Source of the DNA: Clostridia bacterium
GTDB lineage: Bacteria; Bacillota; Clostridia; TANB77; UBA1234
Reading direction: 5' to 3'
DNA length: 64,000 nt
NCBI GenBank assembly: GCA_017518295.1
Contig: JAFWVJ010000022.1
Span: 19,614 to 83,613, forward strand
Shown: piece after piece, positions 1 to 11,606 of the stretch
Position numbering within the stretch: position 1 is the first letter of the stretch
Layout of the letters: each line of letters begins with the position of its first letter
Translations under genes and position numbers: made by a program
The notes under the pieces: model-generated
What the model saw: only the letters and a program-made list of their open reading frames with translations
What the model was told of the DNA's origin: nothing
Databases searched by the model: none

Positions 1-354
1 AGCACGGACGAAATTGTTAAACTCAAAGAGACAGCTGTTACGATGGGATTTAGTTATCCAAGGATGTTGCTTCATTGCTTAATTCCTTACATCACACCAT
101 CGCTTGTTGCGTCATTCATCAATTTGTACGCAGTAGGCTGGACCTATGTGGTTATTGCTGAAACAAACAATACACAATATGGTCTTGGACATCTCATGTA
201 TATAGGTGGTGCTCGAGGAAAAACAGCAATGGTTTTTGCAGCAATCATTACGTTGTTTGTTTTTAGCAAACTTTTCAATATGATTGCAACGTGGATAACT
301 CGAAAGATTTTCAAATGGAGGATCGAAGATGAAAAAAAGAGTGTTACGGCTTGA
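1..354 (+). CDS. ABC transporter permease (TauC/SsuC-like inner-membrane component), 5' end cut by window edge
   Basis: Open frame from position 1 with no in-window start; hydrophobic C-terminal permease segment; immediately followed by and overlapping an ABC ATPase gene. Confidence 0.7.
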   Translation, partial: STDEIVKLKETAVTMGFSYPRMLLHCLIPYITPSLVASFINLYAVGWTYVVIAETNNTQYGLGHLMYIGGARGKTAMVFAAIITLFVFSKLFNMIATWITRKIFKWRIEDEKKSVTA

Positions 355-1105
355 TAACATCAGCCTATCATTTGGCGAGAATGAACTCTTTGCCAATATG
401 GATTATGAATTCAAGCCTGGCATTTATGCTTTTTCCGGTCCTTCAGGAGTTGGAAAAACCACATTGATGCGCATGATTGCCGGACTTGAAAAAAGGTATC
501 AGGGAACCATTAGCATCGAAAAAGATGTTGAAAAGAAACTTGATAGTACTCAGCCTGAGTATAGTTTGTTTGGGATTGATCAAATGATTGTCAGTGAAAG
601 GTCTATCATCGAGAAACCTATTCCTGAGATTCATATGGTACATCAACACTATAAAAGTTTTCCGTGGCTTACATGCATAAATAATGTTTTGATGGTATAC
701 AAAGGTCACAAGGTTAGACCGACAGCTAAAGATAGAGAAGAAGCTTTAGAAGTTCTCGATAGACTCGGAATTAAAGAGCATGCAAAAAAATTGCCCACTC
801 AGATTTCCGGTGGACAAGATCAGCGTTTATCACTCGCAAGTGCTTTTGTGAATAAGTGGAGTGATGTAGTACTCTACGATGAACCTACATCTGCACTTGA
901 TGAACAGAATGATATGCTGGTTGTTAATCTTATCAGAGAACATCAAGCTAAATATAATACCATCGAAATTATTATTACTCATGAGCAACACGTTATTGAT
1001 GCACTTAATCCCACGATAATTGAGTTTACGCCAGAGTTTAGGTTAAGACCTTCAAAACCTAAAAAGGAGGTAGCAGAAAATGAAGCTGTTCAAACAGTTT
1101 TATAA
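329..1105 (+). CDS. ABC transporter ATP-binding protein (nitrate/sulfonate/taurine type)
   Basis: Walker A GPSGVGKTT, ABC signature LSGGQ, Walker B LYDEPTSALD; RBS GGAGG 7 nt upstream of ATG. Confidence 0.9.
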   Translation: MKKRVLRLDNISLSFGENELFANMDYEFKPGIYAFSGPSGVGKTTLMRMIAGLEKRYQGTISIEKDVEKKLDSTQPEYSLFGIDQMIVSERSIIEKPIPEIHMVHQHYKSFPWLTCINNVLMVYKGHKVRPTAKDREEALEVLDRLGIKEHAKKLPTQISGGQDQRLSLASAFVNKWSDVVLYDEPTSALDEQNDMLVVNLIREHQAKYNTIEIIITHEQHVIDALNPTIIEFTPEFRLRPSKPKKEVAENEAVQTVL

Positions 1106-1814
1106 GTATTTTATTATTCTGTTTAGTTTAATTCTTTTTATCGTTTTGAGAATCGCTTTTGGTAGTAATATCTTCATCTATATTCTGACTGCCCTGATTG
1201 GCGTTGCTCTTTATTATGGTATTTCATTCTACTTCGATTACAAACAAAAAGAGTTGGAATCGAGTTATGAATATCAGAGCAAAAACATGTCAGAAAAAAA
1301 TGAAAGTGAGCTTTCTCAGATTGTAGAAAAGCTCCAGGAGATGGGCGAGAATAAATCAGGCTTTAGAAATGTCATCCTTGAGTTCTTGAGTAAAGTTGAT
1401 TCTTTTGTTCAAAAAGAAAAAGCACTTAATGAACTCATTCAGATGAATGATGATAAAGCTAAGAGATTTTTGCAAGAACGTAGTCAGGCTACAAATAGTT
1501 TTATTATTGCTAACGCAAAGAAACTTATCAAAGCCATGATTGCATATGATGCACAGTCTAAGAAAAATCGTCCTGCCAGGATTGAAGATGTAGAGATTGT
1601 TCAGGATGTGCTTAAGAGCATGGACAGTCTCACTACAAACTACGATCAGCTTTTGGAAGAAGTTGCTAAAATGGGTGATGACTTTAATCCAGAAGATCCA
1701 GGTTTAAGAGATGTTGTCGAAAATCTTCAAGAGATAAGAAAAACTTCTAACGTCGACGACAGCGATAACGAACCAGAAGAAATTCATCTTTTTGTTAATG
1801 GAGCGTCAAGCTAA
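1080..1814 (+). CDS. XpaC-like membrane protein (5-bromo-4-chloroindolyl phosphate hydrolysis protein family), two N-terminal TM helices plus coiled coil
   Basis: RBS AAGGAGG before ATG; two TM helices followed by a long charged helical region typical of the XpaC family, which co-occurs with TelA. Confidence 0.45.
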   Translation: MKLFKQFYKYFIILFSLILFIVLRIAFGSNIFIYILTALIGVALYYGISFYFDYKQKELESSYEYQSKNMSEKNESELSQIVEKLQEMGENKSGFRNVILEFLSKVDSFVQKEKALNELIQMNDDKAKRFLQERSQATNSFIIANAKKLIKAMIAYDAQSKKNRPARIEDVEIVQDVLKSMDSLTTNYDQLLEEVAKMGDDFNPEDPGLRDVVENLQEIRKTSNVDDSDNEPEEIHLFVNGASS

Positions 1815-1843
1815 CTCGCGGTTTTTTTGAAGGAGTGATAATC

Positions 1844-3337
1844 ATGAAGAATAGAAAGACACGGATCTTAGGTCTTGTTGTGATTGTAGTTATCCTTTGT
1901 GTAGGAATGATTGGAGCAGATAAAATTATTTCTGCTGTCCACAAAGAACCTGCCAAGCCCTACAATCCGAATGACGTTAAAGAAGTTACAATTTCGCTTG
2001 ATGAATGGATCGGATGGAAACCTTTGATTTATGCCAATGGTGGTTTAACAACTACTCAAGATAGTATCAATGCAAGAAATGGTATCAGAGTTCGTTACGT
2101 AGTAATGAATGATGCAAGTACTTCTTCTGCTGGGCTCATCTCTGGAGAACTTCAAGGTGCAGGTTATACAGTTAACCGTTATGCATTCTTGCAGAACAAA
2201 TTTGATGATGCCGGTGTAGAAGTATCAATGCCTTACATCACTAACTATTCAAATGGTGGTGATGGTATCATTTCAAAAGCTTCTATCAAGTCTGTAAAAG
2301 ATCTTGTCGGAAAAAAGGTTGCTGTTCCGAGATTTTCTGAAGCACAAACTTTGGTTGAATGGTTAATCACCAACGCCGGGTTGACTGAAGAAGAAATCTT
2401 GAGTATTCGTAAGAACATGGTTTACTTCGAGACAGCTGATGACACTGCGGAAGCATTCTTTGCTGGAAGCGTAGATGCGGCTGCTACCTGGGAACCTTAT
2501 CTTACACAGGCAGCAAGTTCCACTAATTCGAGAATTTTGTTCGATACATCTATGGGAACAAATCTTATCTTGGATGGACTTGTTTTCAGAAAAGATTTTA
2601 TAGAACAAAATGAAGACTTTATCGTGAAACTGATTGATGGTGCACTCGAAGCAAACAGCATGTACTTGAGAGAATTTGAATCCATTAAAGTTATGCCTAT
2701 GTTTGAACTTATGGATGCAGATGAAATCAAAGAGATGTGTGCTAACGCTTCAGTTGCAACCTGGGCAGATAACATGAATCTTTTGAATACAACTGCTGTA
2801 ACTATCTACAAAGATATGGCCAACATTTGGATTTCGGTTGGAGAAACTGCAAAACCTGAAAAGGCAGAAACAGCTTTTACAACCAAGTATGTAGAAGCTC
2901 TGCAAGCTAAATATCCAAATGATGATGTTACTTCTTTTGCTTTTTCAAGTGAAGGAAGACAAGCTGCACAGCAGATTAATAACAATTCTGCACTGCTTTC
3001 AGTAAGACTCGATATCAAGTTTGAAACAGACTCTTACAAAATCTCTAGTGATTCTTTTCCTGCACTTGTTGAATTTGCAGAAACTGCTAAAGTGCTAAAC
3101 GGTGTATATATCCAGATAGAGGGAAACACCGCAAAAGTAGATGGCGATGATGGTAAAGACTTCTCGTACAAGAGAGCAAGAAGCGTTGCAAAATATCTGC
3201 AAGCTCTTGGAATTGATTCTCGTAGATTTATTATCATAGGTAATGGAGATACTAATCCTATCGATACAAATCTTACTGAAGAAGGCAAGGCCAACAATCG
3301 TCGTACTGAAGTATTCTTCAAAACAATAGGTTACTGA
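1844..3337 (+). CDS. Membrane-anchored ABC substrate-binding protein (NMT1/SsuA-like) fused to a C-terminal OmpA-like peptidoglycan-binding domain
   Basis: N-terminal TM anchor; periplasmic-binding-protein core; C-terminus has OmpA motifs (NGDTNPID... NNRRTEV). Start moved to ATG 1844 (RBS GAAGGAG, spacing 8). Confidence 0.7.
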   Translation: MKNRKTRILGLVVIVVILCVGMIGADKIISAVHKEPAKPYNPNDVKEVTISLDEWIGWKPLIYANGGLTTTQDSINARNGIRVRYVVMNDASTSSAGLISGELQGAGYTVNRYAFLQNKFDDAGVEVSMPYITNYSNGGDGIISKASIKSVKDLVGKKVAVPRFSEAQTLVEWLITNAGLTEEEILSIRKNMVYFETADDTAEAFFAGSVDAAATWEPYLTQAASSTNSRILFDTSMGTNLILDGLVFRKDFIEQNEDFIVKLIDGALEANSMYLREFESIKVMPMFELMDADEIKEMCANASVATWADNMNLLNTTAVTIYKDMANIWISVGETAKPEKAETAFTTKYVEALQAKYPNDDVTSFAFSSEGRQAAQQINNNSALLSVRLDIKFETDSYKISSDSFPALVEFAETAKVLNGVYIQIEGNTAKVDGDDGKDFSYKRARSVAKYLQALGIDSRRFIIIGNGDTNPIDTNLTEEGKANNRRTEVFFKTIGY

Positions 3338-3428
3338 TAACTTTCATGTAGCGGATGTCCAAAAGGATGAAATGACATCCGCTACTTTTTTTGAGGTTTT
3401 TCAATCACCGAAATGGAGGTATAAGGAA

Positions 3429-5102
3429 ATGAAGAATCGGAAAATTACTATTCTTGCCATGCTTGTCGTGTTTGTTTTGATGCTTTCAGGATGCGAACTT
3501 GGTACTTCAACCAAGATTGATCCTGCCGCTGTTAACTACGACAATGTCATTTCATATATCGATGACCTGAAAATCGGCCTTTCAAAAGTAACCCCTGTTA
3601 AAGGAACTGTTCCTGAAAGAGCAGCTACTAATGATACAAGCACGATGGTCATGTATGAGCTTCCGGATATCTCAAGTTATGATCCAGTTGTAATTGGTAA
3701 GGCACCTAACAATGTTGAAGTGTTTTTACCTCTCGAAGATAACAATAGTAAAATCAGCCAAGTTGTAGAAAGTGCTGCGCGTAAGTATAACGAAGAACAT
3801 GAAGGTGTTTCTTCTATAACTCTGCGCATCCTTGAATCTGAACTTGCAAACGATTTTATTAAATCAGGAGCTTATCTTCCTAAGGGCTACATTGCCTCGA
3901 ATGAACTCTATGGCTTGATGCTCAAAGAAAATGGAATCAAAGTCAGTAAAGTTACAGATAGGCTTGTGGGAAATACAATTGGTGTAGTAATCAAGAAAGA
4001 ATCCAGTAACAAGATTAAGATTGAAGATCCTGAAAAAATGTTTGATTCAATCTTCAAATCAGTAATGAATGGCGAGATTAAGATTGGATATCCCAATCCT
4101 ACAAACAATCCGTCAGGACTTAATTTTGTTATTTCGATGCTTTCGTACTTTGATAGCACGAATCCTTTCAGCATGGAAGCAACTACAGACTTTAGCGCAT
4201 TCCAAAGTAAAGTATCAGTTGCATACTCTACAAAGCAGCTTAAAGAATCTGCAAATAGAGGAGAAACAGATGGCTTTGTGATGGAATATGAAGCTTTCCA
4301 AAACGATGCTTCGCTTAAGGACTACGGATTCGTTCCGTTTGGTGTACGTCATGATTATCCGCTGTATGCAGTGGGTGATGTGAGTGAAGCAGAAACGAAA
4401 GTACTTAGCGAGTTTGCCAAAGTATTTGAAGAAACAGGTGTCAAAGAAATGGCAACAGAAGCTGGATTTGATAAAAATGAAAACTACAAATCTAGCGTGA
4501 ATGCTGGTGCTTATGATGGCTTGATTGGTGAAGTGCTTGATTTCTTCAAGACTGAAAAGAAGTCGGGTAAGAAAGTTGCTGTATTTTTTGTATGTGACAA
4601 ATCTGGAAGTATGGCTGGTAAAAAGATTAATGCCCTAAAAGAATCTGCTCTTAATGCTATGCAGTATATAGGAGAAGACAATCTTGTAGGACTAATTACT
4701 TACGATAGTGGTGTATATCTGAACCTGCCTCTTGCAGAGTTTAATACCGAACAGCAGGAATTCTTCGCAGGAAGTATTCAGCAGCTTGGTAGTGGTGGAG
4801 GTACTGCAACAAACAATGCATTGCTTCATGCACTTAAACTGCTTGATGGCTACTACAGAGAACATCCTGATACTATCCCGATGATTTTCCTTTTGAGTGA
4901 TGGCTATACCGAAAGTGGATATTCATTAAGCGGTGTAAAGTGTCTGATTAGTGCTTTTGATATTCCGATTTATACAATCGGTTATGAAGCCAATCTCGAT
5001 GAACTTAAATCTATTGCAAATATCAATAATGGTGTATTTATTAATGCATCTACAGATGATGTAGGATATATTCTTAAATCTCTGTTTGATGCTCAAACCT
5101 AA
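3429..5102 (+). CDS. Lipoprotein with C-terminal von Willebrand factor A (vWA) domain
   Basis: Lipobox LSGC after signal peptide; MIDAS motif DKSGSM, downstream GGGT and LSDG motifs; start at ATG 3429 with GGAGG RBS. Confidence 0.75.
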   Translation: MKNRKITILAMLVVFVLMLSGCELGTSTKIDPAAVNYDNVISYIDDLKIGLSKVTPVKGTVPERAATNDTSTMVMYELPDISSYDPVVIGKAPNNVEVFLPLEDNNSKISQVVESAARKYNEEHEGVSSITLRILESELANDFIKSGAYLPKGYIASNELYGLMLKENGIKVSKVTDRLVGNTIGVVIKKESSNKIKIEDPEKMFDSIFKSVMNGEIKIGYPNPTNNPSGLNFVISMLSYFDSTNPFSMEATTDFSAFQSKVSVAYSTKQLKESANRGETDGFVMEYEAFQNDASLKDYGFVPFGVRHDYPLYAVGDVSEAETKVLSEFAKVFEETGVKEMATEAGFDKNENYKSSVNAGAYDGLIGEVLDFFKTEKKSGKKVAVFFVCDKSGSMAGKKINALKESALNAMQYIGEDNLVGLITYDSGVYLNLPLAEFNTEQQEFFAGSIQQLGSGGGTATNNALLHALKLLDGYYREHPDTIPMIFLLSDGYTESGYSLSGVKCLISAFDIPIYTIGYEANLDELKSIANINNGVFINASTDDVGYILKSLFDAQT

Positions 5103-5104
5103 TC

Positions 5105-5172
5105 GTAACGGCGACTATTAGTCGCCAAACAATAAAAAACTCCGTGAGAAATTTCTCACGGAGCTTTTTTTA
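5105..5172. terminator. Bidirectional intrinsic terminator (two hairpins) between convergent vWA lipoprotein and TelA genes
   Basis: ggcgactattagtcgcc; ctccgtgagaaatttctcacggag plus T7, with an A-run on the other side. Confidence 0.8.
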
Positions 5173-5887
5173 GATTAACAAGAGTTTGTTTTGCACTAAC
5201 AATGTTGTTTATTGAAATTTGATTTTTCAAAAGTGGAATAGTAACGTTTATGATAGTACTAATTCGTTCTAGCACTCTAGTATCTGTTGCAAGGAGCATT
5301 TCAACTTGTGCAATATTTTGCATTACAACAGTACGAGAAACTGCTAAGTTATTAAGCCGCCTTCTAAATGTATCAAGATGTTGGAATGTTTTTGGAGTTT
5401 CTTCAAATTGTGCAATTCTTTTTTGACCAGCTAATATATAAAGAGAAATTTCTTTATAATATTTTTTGTTGGTCTTAAGAATCTTTTTAAGAAAATCCAT
5501 GTCTTGCATAATAGTAAGTTGATAGTCACGTAGCCTTGCAATAATCTCTTCAATGTTATTTTTGATTTTGTTGTACTCAATTATTAAAGTATTTGTAGCA
5601 TTTCTTTTAATAAATCCGATTGGACTATTTAAAGAAGCACTATCTGTCCGCAAAGAATTAAAACTTGCAGTTAAGCTCTCAAAAATTCTATCGATATCTT
5701 CTAAGTCTTTTGTTTTTATCTGACTTAAAATTTTATCACTAGATTCTGAAAGTTTCTTTTGCGGTTCCATACCATAATTAAGCACTAAGTTAAGATCAAA
5801 AATATCAATTTGTGGAACAAGATTATAGGCAAGGGAGAGCTCTTGCTCAGTAAATTCACTCTCATCAATTAGTATCACATCTGCCAC
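5156..5887 (-). CDS. TelA/KlaA-family toxic-anion-resistance protein
   Basis: Coiled-coil protein with TelA-like N-terminal region; GTG start with GGAGG RBS at spacing 8; size like KlaA (about 250 aa). Confidence 0.6.
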   Translation of the reverse strand: MADVILIDESEFTEQELSLAYNLVPQIDIFDLNLVLNYGMEPQKKLSESSDKILSQIKTKDLEDIDRIFESLTASFNSLRTDSASLNSPIGFIKRNATNTLIIEYNKIKNNIEEIIARLRDYQLTIMQDMDFLKKILKTNKKYYKEISLYILAGQKRIAQFEETPKTFQHLDTFRRRLNNLAVSRTVVMQNIAQVEMLLATDTRVLERISTIINVTIPLLKNQISINNIVSAKQTLVNLKKAP

Positions 5888-6100: not shown

Positions 6101-6129
6101 TTGACAAATTGCATTATGCATGGTATAGT
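6101..6129 (+). promoter_or_regulatory. Sigma-A-type promoter for 6199..7275
   Basis: TTGACA-17 bp-TATAGT. Confidence 0.7.
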
Positions 6130-6198
6130 CTTCATGTATTAAAAATAGTTACTCTTTGAATTGTGTACGATTCATTAATTATAAGGGAGGATACTTTT

Positions 6199-7275
6199 AT
6201 GAGGCTTCGGGGCTACCAAGAAATCATGGGTGCTAATCGACCAGAAGAAATCTTTACTATGAATCCTGCTACTTTGCAAAAAGAATATGAAGCATATTGT
6301 GAGCAGTATAAACCGAACCAACAATTTCATGAGATAAGAAATTTTGTTGCAAGTCAGCAAATAAAATTTCTTTTCAAAAAAGCAAAAGAAATTCTTGGTT
6401 CTAAGAGGGAAGATACTGATGACTATGGTTCTACTATTTCGCTTTGCTCTGCAAATGGAGAAAGCATCGTCTTTGAATATGATGATCATATGGATCAGAG
6501 AGTATGTGATACATACATCAATGATCAAGAAATTCTTATGACTGTTGATTCAAAGTACGAAGTAAAAGGATTGTTTTCAAACTTTGTTGAAAAAGTTGAA
6601 GAGTTTATTTCTACTTGGGAGAACAAACTTCCAAACTGGAAAGATTTTCAGTATTCTATTCCACAAGTTGTTAAGTCTTTTAGAACTTCGGATAAATCCA
6701 AATATGTACTGCTTATTAAAAAGCCGTGCAAGATTTATCCTTTAAGAGAAGTACTTAACTTCTTTGGTGGAAGGATGAATGTGAAGCATGTGATTTCTAT
6801 CATCAAGCGGCTTTATAGTTATGCTTGTTGGTTGGATATTGCAGGTATGACTCACAATGGTATCTGTATAGACAATATTTACTTTTCTCCGGGAAGTGAA
6901 GTTGCGCCAGGCGAGAAATATTCTGTTAAAGATATTAGAATAGTTGGCTTGTATGGCGGATGGTTTTTCACCACAAGTAAGAATGAAAAAATTACTGCAC
7001 TTCCTATGGATGTAAGAGATATTGTTCCTGAGTTTGTCGAAAAGACAGGATACTCTTCTTTTGAAGTAGATATGCTTTCCATTAAGAAAGTTGCTCGAGA
7101 ACTTTTAGGTGATGTTACAGGCAAAAACTTGTATGGTGTTCATAGCAAACTTTGCGATTGGTTCAATAGAACCACTTGTCAAAAGAATGCTTATGAGGAG
7201 TACAGCGAATTCGAAAGAATTTGCGAAGAGGTTTTTGGTAAAGCTAGATTCGTCGATATCGACGTTTCTATATAA
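6199..7275 (+). CDS. Hypothetical protein with atypical protein-kinase-like catalytic-loop motif
   Basis: Strong sigma-A promoter TTGACA-17-TATAGT and RBS AAGGGAGG; motif HNGICIDNIYF resembles kinase catalytic loop HxDxxxxN, preceded by a VLLIKK lysine strand; no clear DFG. Confidence 0.5.
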   Translation: MRLRGYQEIMGANRPEEIFTMNPATLQKEYEAYCEQYKPNQQFHEIRNFVASQQIKFLFKKAKEILGSKREDTDDYGSTISLCSANGESIVFEYDDHMDQRVCDTYINDQEILMTVDSKYEVKGLFSNFVEKVEEFISTWENKLPNWKDFQYSIPQVVKSFRTSDKSKYVLLIKKPCKIYPLREVLNFFGGRMNVKHVISIIKRLYSYACWLDIAGMTHNGICIDNIYFSPGSEVAPGEKYSVKDIRIVGLYGGWFFTTSKNEKITALPMDVRDIVPEFVEKTGYSSFEVDMLSIKKVARELLGDVTGKNLYGVHSKLCDWFNRTTCQKNAYEEYSEFERICEEVFGKARFVDIDVSI

Positions 7276-7310: not shown

Positions 7311-8267
7311 ATGGGTGGCAGTCCTACTACATCTGCTCAGGTGAGCTCCTACTATAATACGCACAAGGATATTAAGAAGGCTACAAGTGTGCGGGAAGTA
7401 TTTAAGTCGAGTGGTCTGAATGAACTTATGGATCCTTCGAAACTGAAGAATGGATTCAGGGATTCCAGCGACTCCGTGGAAAGCCCCAACTCTCGGGCTA
7501 TTGCTATCGGATTTGATGAGACCGGTTCCATGGGACATATTCCTTTCACATTCGTGCAGGATGGTTTCCCGAGGTTCATCAATATGATTCAGGGTGGAGC
7601 CCTGGGATATGATCCTCACATTCTCTTCGCCGCGATTGGCGATGTGAAGAGTGATGATTCTCCGCTCCAGGTTTCGCAGTTTGAAGCGGACAACCGTATG
7701 CTGGATCAGCTTCGGCTTTTCTACATCGAAGGAAACGGCGGCGGAAATGATGGTGAAAGCTATCAGATTCCGTGGTACTTCCTGGCCAAGCATACCAAGA
7801 TTGCATGCTTCAACAAGAGGGCCCAGAAAGGTATCTACATTTCTATCGGCGATGATAAGCCGCACCCGGAGACAACTGTGTATCAGTTCAAAAAAATCTT
7901 CGGTGACAAAGAAAGTGTAGAAAGAGCCTACAAGACAACCGAGCTTCGCGATATGGCACTGGAAAAATGGAATCTTTTCCATGTGCTTATTTCCGAACGC
8001 GGATACGGTAGTTACCATGTGGAAGAAACCTGGAAGAGGCTTCTTGGAAATCACATCGTTATCCTGGATGATCACAGGTATGTTGCTGAAGTTTTGGCAA
8101 CCATTCTCAAGATGCAAAATGGTGTTGAGCGCAATGAAGCAATCGACATGATTGAAGACACCGATGCAAAGAAGGTTGTGCGCAGTGCCTTCAAGAATTT
8201 TGAAATCTATGAAGATGGTGCTACCGGAATCGGCGAAGCCACCAAGGAAGGTCTGGAATTCATTTAA
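7311..8267 (+). CDS. vWA-like (TerY-like) domain protein, G+C-rich gene
   Basis: RBS AAAGGAGG; MIDAS-like FDETGSMG, GNGGGNDGES and SIGDD motifs; composition clearly more G+C-rich than flanks. Confidence 0.6.
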   Translation: MGGSPTTSAQVSSYYNTHKDIKKATSVREVFKSSGLNELMDPSKLKNGFRDSSDSVESPNSRAIAIGFDETGSMGHIPFTFVQDGFPRFINMIQGGALGYDPHILFAAIGDVKSDDSPLQVSQFEADNRMLDQLRLFYIEGNGGGNDGESYQIPWYFLAKHTKIACFNKRAQKGIYISIGDDKPHPETTVYQFKKIFGDKESVERAYKTTELRDMALEKWNLFHVLISERGYGSYHVEETWKRLLGNHIVILDDHRYVAEVLATILKMQNGVERNEAIDMIEDTDAKKVVRSAFKNFEIYEDGATGIGEATKEGLEFI

Positions 8268-8353
8268 TCAAATGATACAAAAGAGAAGATGATGATTTTA
8301 TCATCTTCTCTTATTCTTCTTTTAAATTCTTTTTAAGGAAAGGAGAATTTATT

Positions 8354-9586
8354 GTGGTAAAGTCGTGCTCCATAGTTATTGGAGCTGGTCTCGGTGATGA
8401 AGGAAAAGGCCATTATACAGATATTTTGTGTAACAAACCGAACACACTTAATATTCGTTTTAATGGTGGACCGCAAGCAGCACACACTGTGGTGACTCCT
8501 GATGGAATGAAACATGTATTTCGGCATTTAGGAGCAGGGACCTTCACTGGTGCAACCACATATTTGAGTGCAGACTTTTTGATTAATCCTATCGAGTTTG
8601 TGATGGAGAAAACAAAGTTCATTAGAAAGTTTAAATATAATCCTACAGTAATTGTGAATTTGAATTCTCCAGTAACAACTCTTTACGATATGTATATCAA
8701 TCAAGCAGTGGAAGAGTATCGCGACAAATCCCGTCATGGAAGTTGTGGTATGGGCATTTGGGAAACTTGTGAGAGAAACAATAACCCAATGTTTAAAATC
8801 ACTGTAAGAGAGTTGTCTTTTAAAGAAATCTTGAGAGAAAAGCTTAAGAGGATAAGAGACATCTATGTGCCAAAGAGATTGAAAGAAGAGTATGGAATAG
8901 AAATTACCGATTTGGTAAATCTTTCTAAAGATTATCCATCTTTACTTGTAAGCGATGAGACAATCGATATGTTTTTATTCTATGCTGAAGAATTTTTGTC
9001 GATGGTAATAGTAAGAGATGACTCTATCATCAATAGTTTTGAAAACTTGGTATTTGAAGGTGCTCAAGGATTGGGACTTGATGAAAACAATCCTGATTGC
9101 AGTGTGGATTTTCTCACTCCATCAACTACAGGTGTTACAAATGCAATGAGAATTCTTAAGACTGCAAAGTATAAAGGAGAACCGGATATTTATTATATTA
9201 GTCGACCTTATGCCACAAGACATGGTATGGGACCTCTGGAACATGAAGTAGGGAAAACTCCTTACAAGAAGGTTTTAGATGAGACTAATGTAAAAAATGA
9301 ATATCAAGGAGAATTAAGATTTGCTTACATAGATTTTGATATACTTGCTAGAAGAATCAAAAGAGATATCCAAAAAATCAGTATTCCTTCCACTATAAAC
9401 ATTGGATTCACGTGTTTGGATCAGCTAGATGAACCTGTCGGAATTAGCGAAGGTGGAATTCTTATTAATAATCGCTCTGCAGATTTTATTAATAAGGCAA
9501 CTAACTATTTTAGAAAAGCTATTCCGAGTATAAATGGTTTTTCTGGAACGTATGGACTGACACGAGATGAATTTGAAGAATTTTAA
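8354..9586 (+). CDS. Divergent adenylosuccinate-synthetase (PurA)-like ligase
   Basis: GTG start with AAGGAAAGGAG RBS; PurA-like motifs GDEGKGH and RFNGGPQAAHTV but diverged from canonical GDEGKGK/GGHNAGH. Confidence 0.7.
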   Translation: MVKSCSIVIGAGLGDEGKGHYTDILCNKPNTLNIRFNGGPQAAHTVVTPDGMKHVFRHLGAGTFTGATTYLSADFLINPIEFVMEKTKFIRKFKYNPTVIVNLNSPVTTLYDMYINQAVEEYRDKSRHGSCGMGIWETCERNNNPMFKITVRELSFKEILREKLKRIRDIYVPKRLKEEYGIEITDLVNLSKDYPSLLVSDETIDMFLFYAEEFLSMVIVRDDSIINSFENLVFEGAQGLGLDENNPDCSVDFLTPSTTGVTNAMRILKTAKYKGEPDIYYISRPYATRHGMGPLEHEVGKTPYKKVLDETNVKNEYQGELRFAYIDFDILARRIKRDIQKISIPSTINIGFTCLDQLDEPVGISEGGILINNRSADFINKATNYFRKAIPSINGFSGTYGLTRDEFEEF

Positions 9587-9596
9587 ATTCAAAAAT

Positions 9597-9640
9597 AAAT
9601 ACCGCTATGCAAAATTTGCATAGCGGTATTATTTTTATTT
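9597..9640. terminator. Bidirectional intrinsic terminator
   Basis: ataccgctatgcaaaatttgcatagcggtat plus T-run. Confidence 0.8.
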
Positions 9641-9901
9641 GGTTGTATAGGAAAGACCATTTCCCAAAGACATAGTCATGCCTCGATTGGTATTGAAGGT
9701 AGTTCCATTGGGGAGCACGTAGCTGATTGAAGTAAGTCCTTTTTTGCTGTAGTTTGCATAGATTTTGGTCTTTGCAGACTTAAGTTTTGCACCGCAATCG
9801 GGGCAATAACAGCAATCCTGAGAGAATACTTTTTTACAAGCATCACAACTCATAAGGACCGTTTCACTCAGAAGCTGGCGTGCCTTATAGTTGATTCCCA
9901 T
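9635..9901 (-). CDS. Small zinc-ribbon protein
   Basis: CDAC...CYCPDCG Cys pairs; shares a bidirectional terminator with the upstream gene. Confidence 0.5.
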   Translation of the reverse strand: MGINYKARQLLSETVLMSCDACKKVFSQDCCYCPDCGAKLKSAKTKIYANYSKKGLTSISYVLPNGTTFNTNRGMTMSLGNGLSYTTK

Positions 9902-9923: not shown

Positions 9924-11606
9924 TCAGCGGGGCATAACGGCCGTTGCCTTTTTCTTGGCAGGAGCCTTCTTGGCGGGCACGGCAGGAGCAGCGGGAGCAG
10001 GTTCAGCAGTGGGAGCAGCAGCCTTATTTACCAGGCCGTTTCCGCAGTAGGGACAGAACTTGGCTTCTTCAGGCACTTCTTTGCCACACGCTTTGCACAC
10101 ATTGGCGCCGATCTTGGCACCGCACTTGTGGCAGAACTTTGCGCCGTCCTTCAGAGGTTCCCCACACTTGGGACACACATTGCCGGCTGCTTTGACTTCG
10201 CCACCACATTCGGTGCAGAACTTGACTTCGGGATCATCGAACTTTTTGCCGCAAGAAGTGCAGACATACTGTCCAGGCACAGCGGCGGCCGCGGCTGCGG
10301 GAGCACCGATTCCGGGAATCACGGAAGTAATTCCGTTCATCATATCACCCAGCGGGTTGGCATTGTTGCCACCACCCAGCAGGTTGGAAAGCAGAGTGAT
10401 CTTCATGAAATCATTCATTCCGCCTTCACCGCCATCGCCCATCATCATCATCATCATCATGATGTTGGGGCTGCCATCGGGATTGGTGATACCCAGGCTG
10501 CCGTCTTTGGAAGCCATCAGCATAGGCAGGAACATACCCAGGCCGTTGAAGCTGTCATCGTTGATGTCATCCAGGCTGAACTCAGCCTTGTCATTGTCCA
10601 TCATCTTCATCATCAGCATAGCGCCCAGGACATTGCCGCCCATGTTCTGCTTGGAGTTCGGATCCAGCAGGGTCTTACCATCGAAGGCGATAACTTCAGT
10701 GTAGAAGTTGAAGTCAGGGATCAGGGAGTCGTTGTTCACGAACGTTTCGATAGCACCAGTCTGGGCATTCACGCCAGTGAAGGTGTTATCATTGTTGATG
10801 CTCTGCACCCAGTAGTACTTGCCATCACGCTTGGTCAGCTTGCCCACGGTCAGGTTCTTAACCGGAACCACGATAATGGGGAAGTTACCCAGCTTCAGAT
10901 TCAGCATATCCTTACGGGTGCGGGTCGCGGGGTCGAAAGCATACCATTTTCCGTTTTCGGGATTCTGAACGACGATGCCGGTCAGAGTGGACTTGATCCG
11001 AGGATCCTTGTTGATACCCATTTCCATACCAGAGAAGAGCTTACCGAAACCTTTCATACTAAATCCTCCTTTATTATCCTCAATGCCGTGATATACGGCA
11101 AGAGCTTCTTTGACTTCGTTCAGTTTAAACTGAACTACACAAGTGACGGAACCTTTGTTGAAGTACATGCTGCTGTTGGGAGTAAGTTTGTTAATACCAA
11201 TACATACTTCTTTTTGACTGCAGTAAGGAAACTGCTGACAATCACGTGCTGAGAGCCAATTGGTACTAACATTCACATCAAAGCTAATATAGTCCGACTT
11301 ACGAGCAAGAACTTTTTCGAGCTGTTCGATAAATTCATTGATAGTAAACTCAACAGTTTCAAAGTAAACATGCTGATGAGGACAAAAACTAGAAAAGTTA
11401 ATCAAAAGCTTGTTGGGTTCTCCTGTCGGAATAGTAGTACGAATATTACCAGACCAAAACCGAACAAGAGAATTATCAAAGAATGGAGTAGTGCACGGAC
11501 TTCTACTGTTTACCTCAACCTGATTTGATGGACCATGAGTATAAAGGTCGAACATCCATCTTGTGGGTACAAGTTTCCGGATCAGAGAAGTATCACCCTT
11601 GGACAT
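9924..11606 (-). CDS. Large protein: unknown N-terminal domain, poly-Met/Gly low-complexity linker, four C-terminal zinc-ribbon (CxxCG) repeats, Ala/Pro/Lys tail
   Basis: RBS AGGAGGG before ATG; CxxCG...CxxCG x4; (ATG)7 trinucleotide run encodes MMMMMMM; the C-terminal half is strikingly G+C-rich. Confidence 0.7.
   Translation of the reverse strand: MSKGDTSLIRKLVPTRWMFDLYTHGPSNQVEVNSRSPCTTPFFDNSLVRFWSGNIRTTIPTGEPNKLLINFSSFCPHQHVYFETVEFTINEFIEQLEKVLARKSDYISFDVNVSTNWLSARDCQQFPYCSQKEVCIGINKLTPNSSMYFNKGSVTCVVQFKLNEVKEALAVYHGIEDNKGGFSMKGFGKLFSGMEMGINKDPRIKSTLTGIVVQNPENGKWYAFDPATRTRKDMLNLKLGNFPIIVVPVKNLTVGKLTKRDGKYYWVQSINNDNTFTGVNAQTGAIETFVNNDSLIPDFNFYTEVIAFDGKTLLDPNSKQNMGGNVLGAMLMMKMMDNDKAEFSLDDINDDSFNGLGMFLPMLMASKDGSLGITNPDGSPNIMMMMMMMGDGGEGGMNDFMKITLLSNLLGGGNNANPLGDMMNGITSVIPGIGAPAAAAAAVPGQYVCTSCGKKFDDPEVKFCTECGGEVKAAGNVCPKCGEPLKDGAKFCHKCGAKIGANVCKACGKEVPEEAKFCPYCGNGLVNKAAAPTAEPAPAAPAVPAKKAPAKKKATAVMPR
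10440..10460 (-). repeat. (CAT)7 / (ATG)7 trinucleotide microsatellite inside a coding sequence (poly-Met)
   Basis: catcatcatcatcatcatcat on the top strand, encoding MMMMMMM in 9924..11606. Confidence 0.8.

Follow-up and report, generated by a model that had tools for sequence, protein, structure and literature searches.

The open reading frame (ORF) at 8354–9586 of a 64-kb stretch of DNA from a Clostridia bacterium (hereafter the window, at its full length) encodes a protein with the fold of PurA, adenylosuccinate synthetase (AdSS). In the reading that we consider somewhat more probable than not, this protein has no part in purine biosynthesis and instead forms the catalytic subunit of a cassette that is conserved but uncharacterised. 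Three adjacent genes of the window are central to this view:

6163–7275, plus strand: gene A, encoding a J-domain-like and protein-kinase-like protein of 370 residues
7311–8267, plus strand: gene B, encoding a cryptic vWA-fold protein of 318 residues, recognized with an AlphaFold2 (AF2) model and Foldseek
8354–9586, plus strand: the gene of the PurA-like enzyme, 410 residues, with the GTP and phosphotransfer machinery kept and the aspartate loop remodelled

The PurA-like ORF is real; its Pfam match to PF00709 (adenylosuccinate synthetase), with an E-value of 1.2e-29 and 103.8 bits, is far beyond chance. It starts with GTG, with an AAAGGAG Shine–Dalgarno sequence 8 nt upstream, and the protein carries the motifs GDEGKGH at residues 14–20 and FNGGPQAAHT at residues 36–45. 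Alignment of hidden Markov models (HMM–HMM, hhalign) matched Escherichia coli PurA to a family of 201 members with a probability of 100% over 374 aligned columns; the E. coli reference sequence was that of PDB 1ade, identical over 431 residues. An identical protein is deposited at NCBI as MBR3281569.1, ‘MAG: adenylosuccinate synthetase [Clostridia bacterium]’, and the nearest copy in a species-representative genome collection, at 76% identity, comes from a metagenome-assembled genome (MAG) of sheep-rumen Clostridia. The initial annotation of this DNA had pointed to PurA fold signatures, a GTG start and an accessory, non-purine setting, all of which were borne out.

The NCBI name implies that the gene is this Clostridium's housekeeping adenylosuccinate synthetase. 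The PF00709 match and the conservation of the P-loop and of the catalytic Asp, His and Gln are in keeping with such a role, and there is no second purA within the 64-kb window. Nevertheless, the protein falls far short of the curated cut-offs for PurA equivalogs, scoring 85.2 bits with NF002223 (cut-off 402) and 77.3 bits with TIGR00184 (cut-off 395.55). Its identity to E. coli PurA is 22%, as compared with 53% for the true PurA of Candidatus Electronema halotolerans, in which the GATTGRRRR loop is present. The complete chromosome of this cable bacterium carries the canonical gene (locus L067, 1–1296) 9 kb from a PurA-like/vWA pair, so that both paralogs coexist in one genome, and copies of the PurA-like gene are also found in phages. 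In a neighbour-joining tree the family was separate from E. coli PurA, Electronema PurA and the PurZ of phage phiVC8, and thus branches outside both PurA and PurZ. Given these observations, and the loss from all 201 relatives of the arginines and threonines that bind aspartate, the gene is almost certainly not the housekeeping purA.

The residue map of the family, in E. coli numbering, was built with hhalign, with MAFFT motif blocks as a second alignment. G12, D13, G17, H41 and Q224 were invariant among the 201 members, and E14, G15, K16, T239 and D333 nearly so. Thr42 is likewise kept, and an S/T-x-G-x-x-R motif corresponds to Ser414–Arg419. We take Asp13 and His41 to be catalytic, Gln224 to contact the 6-oxo group and Asp333 to specify guanine. 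The L-aspartate site of PurA presumably consists of Thr300, Thr301, Arg303 and Arg305, and we take the ligands of the 5'-phosphate of inosine monophosphate (IMP) to be Asn38, Thr129, Thr239 and Arg143', Arg143 being presumably the dimer contact.

No member of the family retains the L-aspartate site, which is deleted or replaced throughout, with loss of both Arg303 and Arg305. In the hhalign alignment T300–R303 are deleted and G298 is replaced by Gln in 201/201 members; MAFFT pairs this same invariant Gln with Thr301 instead, and aligns Arg305 with a hydrophobic position. Both alignments leave a single Arg from the RRRR run in the T300–R305 region. The set of phosphate ligands is also incomplete: Thr239 is kept, Asn38 is replaced by Gln in all 201 members and Thr129 by Cys in 194 of them, with Thr128 to Ser also fixed within the family, while the Arg143 position is variable and the Arg131 position hydrophobic, so that neither arginine is conserved. 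Elsewhere, Val273 has become His in every member and Lys331 has become Cys in 188/201. Taken together, the residues for GTP are kept, the aspartate site is lost and several contacts to the IMP phosphate are replaced.

The divergent, non-housekeeping PurA paralog proposed in the initial annotation is therefore upheld by altered substrate-contact residues, by PurA scores below cut-off and by a separate branch in the tree. The particular substitutions cited there fared unevenly; Asn38 to Gln proved invariant in the family, whereas Lys18 to His, His37 to Pro and Gly40 to Ala vary among relatives. As judged from the alignments, the most telling changes are ones that it missed, namely the remodelled aspartate loop, Thr129 to Cys, Val273 to His and Lys331 to Cys.

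RefSeq and PHROG (phrog_1211) name the family ‘2-aminooxy adenylosuccinate synthetase’, as for phiVC8 PurZ (e.g. NC_054722.1, NC_070967.1, OR413349.1). This label, together with the presence of a PurA homolog on phages, would suit a PurZ-type enzyme making the precursor of 2-aminoadenine (Z) for modified DNA. However, the PurZ model NF038379 scored 27.4 bits against a cut-off of 300, and aligned with the N-terminal 70 residues only; identity to phiVC8 PurZ is 17%, and the two lie in separate clades. Furthermore, PurZ chemistry needs aspartate, but the aspartate site has gone from the PurA-like family. Profile searches of the module and its neighbours found no datZ- or mazZ-like genes, and the PurA-like gene is chromosomal in many bacteria. 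We regard a PurZ-type enzyme as extremely unlikely, and the label, which scores, residues and tree all fail to support, as probably an over-propagated annotation. Housekeeping PurA and PurZ were thus both rejected on the curated cut-offs, the residue map and the tree.

Related loci were compared in sets: three distant homologs first, then 80 loci (one genome per species), with 85 loci used for counts and 90 for the TelA test described below; cassette genes were counted by iterated HMM searches over all ORFs of the related loci. In the three homologs the module has a constant order, in which genes for proteins of ∼350–370 and ∼315 residues precede the PurA-like gene, which is followed, on the opposite strand, by genes for proteins of ∼90 and 520–560 residues. 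The 80 loci belong to Clostridia, Acidobacteriota, Alpha- and Gammaproteobacteria (including isolates of Inquilinus, Thalassospira, Paracoccus and Dyella), cable bacteria, Bacteroidales, Chlorobiota, Nitrospirae, Leptospiraceae and the candidate phyla radiation (CPR). In 78/85 loci the PurA-like gene is immediately preceded by a gene for the 318-residue vWA protein, and the gene for the 370-residue J/kinase-like protein is present upstream of the vWA gene in 54/85, while the genes that flank the cassette vary between loci. The cassette has no conserved AAA+ gene, and none of the five module proteins had a match in PADLOC.

In those cable-bacteria and Bacteroidales loci (L054–L085) that lack the J/kinase-like gene, and likewise at L086 (9639–10001), a conserved coiled-coil ORF of ∼112–120 residues precedes the vWA gene. 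The Electronema version of this ORF is 70% identical to one on a jumbo-phage contig, which suggests that the cassette copies of cable bacteria and Bacteroidales are phage-derived.

The initial annotation had coupled the PurA-like gene to a different vWA gene of the window, for a 576-residue protein in which a substrate-binding protein (SBP) domain is fused to vWA (3372–5102), and to telA (5156–5887). The enzyme would then belong to a Ter-like stress cluster making a nucleotide-derived signal. These genes do lie within 5 kb of one another in the window, and Ter-type clusters have been linked to nucleoside-like metabolites. Nevertheless, genes for TelA, the 576-residue SBP–vWA protein, the SBP–OmpA protein and the ABC ATPase were found in 0/90 related loci, the closest genome (76% identity) included. 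Since these loci all lack both TelA and SBP–vWA, we rejected the coupling to them. In addition, telA is encoded on the other strand, its 3' end is separated from the SBP–vWA gene by terminator-like hairpins in both strands, and the module has no PADLOC match. A Ter-like cluster is thus a very unlikely setting for the enzyme, although a modified nucleotide or a nucleotide-derived signal may possibly be its product. The vWA gene that is conserved beside the PurA-like gene is a different, unannotated one directly upstream, at 7311–8267.

Since sequence searches of Pfam and PDB with this 318-residue protein gave no match, structure prediction was needed for its assignment. The AF2 model has a predicted local distance difference test (pLDDT) score of 92.4, and all of its top Foldseek matches in PDB are vWA domains, with a probability of 1.0. 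The best viral match is the ortholog from mycobacteriophage Sauce, with a query-normalized TM-score (TMq) of 0.82. The metal-ion-dependent adhesion site (MIDAS) motif, D69-x-T71-x-S73 with D181, is invariant in the family, and a Gly-rich loop (E140, GGGN146, E149) is also conserved. So is the N-terminus, MG-x-G-x-[WFY], the protein starting with MG in 116/120 homologs. An exhaustive profile search, with clusters counted at 50% identity, found 948 cluster representatives of the vWA family at E ≤ 1e-30 and 1765 at E ≤ 1e-10. To judge from gene order, gene B encodes the obligate partner of the PurA-like enzyme.

The third protein combines two recognizable parts, a J-domain-like module at its N-terminus and a kinase-like domain at its C-terminus. 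The Pfam DnaJ model matches 18/41 members of the gene A family, and a profile search of PDB with gene A found J domains (2ctr, E = 8e-6) as well as, for the C-terminal part, the C-lobes of Aurora kinases (E = 2e-5). The HPD motif of the J domain is degenerate (KPN or KPK) in the Clostridial clade to which the window belongs, being KPN in the window's clade, and is intact elsewhere. Neither the HRD nor the DFG aspartate of kinases is conserved in the alignment, and the protein is therefore probably a pseudokinase that serves as a scaffold. Phage proteins of 112–120 residues and of 175 residues encoded upstream have no detectable relation to gene A.

The cassette is also a feature of phage genomes. 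The enzyme was found in 228 phage records and the vWA gene in 219, the carriers being Mycobacterium phages of cluster C (∼200), Rhizobium phages of ∼200 kb and Vibrio phages of ∼190 kb. The pair is present, in addition, on large (84–322 kb) phage-like metagenomic contigs. In phage Sauce the whole triad can be recognized: gp258, annotated as a Ser/Thr kinase, is the ortholog of the 370-residue protein, gp259 is the vWA protein and gp260 is PurA-like. Phage and bacterial members of the PurA-like family interleave in the neighbour-joining tree. The vWA/PurA-like pair is common to many bacterial phyla and to large lytic phages.

The vWA ortholog of Sauce has a peculiarity of its own. An insert of ∼255 residues splits gp259 (L089, 3197–4984), annotated only as ‘HNH endonuclease’, directly before the strand of the MIDAS motif ‘IGDE’; the insert begins with Cys (C-NTPD...) and ends ...ASSN|C. 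It resembles an intein that carries a homing endonuclease.

In bacteria, the cassette is repeatedly joined to genes for the salvage of nicotinamide adenine dinucleotide (NAD). A recurrent neighbour of ∼253 residues is a true NrtR, with a Pfam NrtR_WHD match of 94 bits and a NUDIX domain. This gene adjoins the cassette in ∼20 loci, which represent at least five phyla and come from Acidobacteriota, Alpha- and Gammaproteobacteria, Desulfobacterota, Oscillospiraceae and CPR. In Thalassospira xianhensis, genes for NadM/Nudix, NadE, PncB, PncA and the J/kinase-like, vWA and PurA-like proteins follow one another on one strand, as a single operon. A Caulobacterales MAG has another such operon, in which the vWA and PurA-like genes are followed by nadM, pncB and pncA, with nrtR ahead of them on the other strand; in a Desulforapulum MAG, pncB and pncA are divergent from nrtR and the triad. 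A gene for an ADP-ribosylglycohydrolase adjoins nrtR and the triad in Dyella mobilis. Two Clostridial loci both have PncA-like genes, and one of them nadE, beside zinc-ribbon genes. Phage loci show similar associations: in phage RHph_Y65, genes for a phosphoribosyltransferase-like protein and for NMNAT/Nudix lie 4 kb upstream, and on one phage contig the triad is immediately preceded by a NUDIX gene.

Seven Pyrinomonadaceae loci (L026, L028, L029, L033, L034, L035 and L037) have two tandem palindromes of ∼21 bp, near TTAATGTAAAAATGACATTAA in sequence, ∼100 bp upstream of nrtR, where they overlap a TTGACA promoter box. These palindromes are candidate NrtR operators that may control both nrtR and the triad.

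We lean towards the view that the PurA-like protein is a GTP-dependent ligase with a nucleophile other than aspartate, which would work with its vWA partner in phage–host biology centred on NAD or nucleotides. In this scheme, the enzyme would transfer phosphate from GTP to an oxo or carboxyl oxygen on a nucleotide held in the pocket equivalent to that for IMP. The activated carbon would then be passed to ammonia, to another small amine or to an amine presented by the partner protein. The vWA protein would hold or present the substrate through its MIDAS site, while the J-domain protein would tie the complex to Hsp70 in those lineages with an intact HPD motif. Because of the linkage to NrtR and NAD salvage and the distribution among phages, we propose that the cassette may act in conflict between phage and host centred on NAD or nucleotides, or in recovery from NAD+ breakdown.

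The reaction itself can be addressed by speculation. Candidates are amidation of nicotinic acid mononucleotide (NaMN) or nicotinic acid adenine dinucleotide (NaAD), re-amination of hypoxanthine nucleotides without PurB, and ligation to the N-terminal glycine of the partner protein. More specifically, and very tentatively, the pair might be a new GTP-dependent ligase system of one of two kinds. It could supply a novel step in the recovery of NAD+ or ADP-ribose, either by amidation of a nicotinate nucleotide via an acyl-phosphate or by re-amination of hypoxanthine nucleotides that needs neither aspartate nor PurB. Alternatively, it could attach a purine nucleotide, in an N6-type linkage, to a protein amine, for which the invariant N-terminal glycine of the vWA protein is the obvious candidate. 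Such a system might serve phages against NAD-depleting immunity, and bacteria under the control of NrtR. We regard this fuller proposal as doubtful.

The same partners could be read differently, with the PurA-like protein no longer a ligase but driven by GTP as a switch for, or remodeller of, the vWA protein. It would then act as MoxR-type ATPases do on their vWA partners, and the J-domain protein would recruit Hsp70. Such a role would fit the obligate pairing with a MIDAS vWA protein and the J domain in the third protein. Pairs of an NTPase and a vWA protein are a known design, and NorQD is among the fold matches of gene B. However, Asp13, His41, Gln224 and Thr239, residues needed for nothing but chemistry on the second substrate, have stayed invariant or almost so across a very deep divergence, and Gln41, Cys131, His290 and Gln318, pocket residues specific to the PurA-like family, are likewise kept. 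As these stay conserved, a bare GTPase is hard to reconcile with the data, and we think a switch unlikely.

Several considerations weigh against the ligase that we favour. The residue roles on which it draws are those presumed from structural work on E. coli AdSS. Some phage members depart from the family pattern; in that of Vibrio phage Va1, Asn38 and Thr129 are retained and an equivalent of Asp333 is lacking. Substrate and product are not readable from sequence, and a physical interaction between enzyme and vWA protein is suggested by gene adjacency only. Neither extreme form of the proposal suffices, as a purely metabolic role leaves the vWA and J-domain partners unexplained, and a purely protein-directed role leaves the retained contacts to a nucleotide monophosphate unexplained. 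Finally, the window's own cassette has no adjacent nrtR or NAD gene, and its J domain has lost HPD; consequently, the link to NAD extends to the window's copy by homology only.

Beyond the PurA-like gene, the module of the window includes two genes on the other strand:

9635–9901, minus strand: S88, encoding a small zinc-ribbon protein of 88 residues, with orthologs in all 24 Clostridial loci
9924–11606, minus strand: gene of a larger zinc-ribbon protein, with zinc ribbons recognized by Pfam and orthologs in ∼25 loci

Both genes are confined to Clostridia (∼25 loci), the zinc-ribbon pair being an addition to the cassette in Clostridia of the rumen and gut such as this one. The larger protein has the same architecture in 60/60 homologs. 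Its AF2 model (pLDDT 69) comprises two confidently folded domains, a disordered Met-rich segment and four zinc ribbons, and has no significant fold match in PDB. Comparison with phage proteins of 237 residues by hhalign gave a probability of 56% and an E-value of 1e-4.

Three sites in the DNA of the window may bear on expression of the module, and no RNA was found in the window with Rfam:

6101–6129, plus strand: promoter-like site, TTGACA-17-TATAGT extended by TG, that precedes the three-gene operon, 11/12 consensus positions, by consensus match only
8281–8312, plus strand: hairpin in the spacer from gene B to the PurA-like gene, with a 14-bp stem followed by a T-run, by consensus scan only
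9598–9630, no strand assigned: bidirectional hairpin like an intrinsic terminator, with a 15-bp stem and T-runs on both strands, between the convergent PurA-like and S88 genes

The hairpin at 8281–8312 is a possible attenuator or partial terminator.

A separate accessory cluster occupies 329–5887 of the window. It encodes an ABC ATPase, a coiled-coil protein, an SBP–OmpA fusion, the SBP–vWA fusion and a short TelA of 243 residues, which is encoded on the opposite strand and spans positions 4–239 of the 332 in the profile. None of the cluster is conserved with the PurA-like module.

The PurA fold is known to have been repurposed once before, as PurZ, leading to Z-DNA. We rate the PurA-like family as a second neofunctionalized PurA lineage after PurZ, in a cassette whose composition matches no described system. 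A full-text literature search found no description of the cassette, the only possible mentions being ‘PurA-like’ in two announcements of actinophage genomes. If our interpretation is correct, this second repurposing is much more widespread than PurZ: the vWA family alone has ∼950 to 1,800 clusters, and the cassette is present in more than 200 sequenced phages, including mycobacteriophages of cluster C isolated in classrooms. It would also be an unusual case of a vWA MIDAS protein paired with the fold of a small-molecule ligase. The database names ‘adenylosuccinate synthetase’ and ‘2-aminooxy adenylosuccinate synthetase’ mislead metabolic reconstructions, while the repeated joining to NrtR and NAD-salvage operons offers a testable entry into an unknown reaction in the NAD arms race between phages and bacteria.

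Among known systems, the phage pathways of NAD+ reconstitution, NARP1, NARP2 and NARP3, and the NrtR regulon resemble the cassette in their association with phages, in NAD-salvage and Nudix neighbours and in adjacency to NrtR. Namat is among the enzymes of NARP1, and those of NARP2 are Nampt and Nmnat. NARP1 uses Adps as well (PMC13586617). NARP3, which was considered as a match for the cassette, consists of PnuC and a NadR-like enzyme (PMC13464706) and is unrelated. However, no NARP enzyme is known to be PurA-like or a vWA protein, and the role of the cassette in NAD metabolism is proposed from gene neighbourhood. The TerY-P triad of a vWA protein, a Ser/Thr kinase and PP2C similarly places an intracellular vWA gene beside one of kinase fold. 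In contrast to this triad, the cassette lacks PP2C, its kinase-like domain lacks the conserved catalytic Asp and is accompanied by a J domain, its third gene is PurA-like and PADLOC does not recognize it.

The MoxR/vWA systems (NorQD, CbbQO and RavA–ViaA), BchI/BchD and CobS/CobT share with the cassette a nucleotide hydrolase whose gene is tied to that of a MIDAS vWA protein, but in the cassette the NTPase is not an AAA+ ring; its fold is that of PurA, and its ligase pocket is intact. PurA itself (EC 6.3.4.4; PF00709, TIGR00184) has in common with the family the whole fold, the GDEGKG P-loop, Asp13, His41, Gln224, Thr239, Asp333 and the S/T-x-G motif. The family differs in its remodelled aspartate loop, in the fixed Gln38, Cys129, His273 and Cys331, in an Arg143 that is not conserved, in scores about one-fifth of the equivalog cut-off and in being encoded beside vWA and J-domain partners and on phages. 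The closest precedent in kind is PurZ, the phage succino-amino-deoxyadenylate synthase of the 2-aminoadenine pathway, likewise a neofunctionalized PurA paralog carried by phages; yet PurZ uses aspartate and is accompanied by datZ and mazZ, whereas the PurA-like family has other partners and is widespread in bacterial chromosomes.

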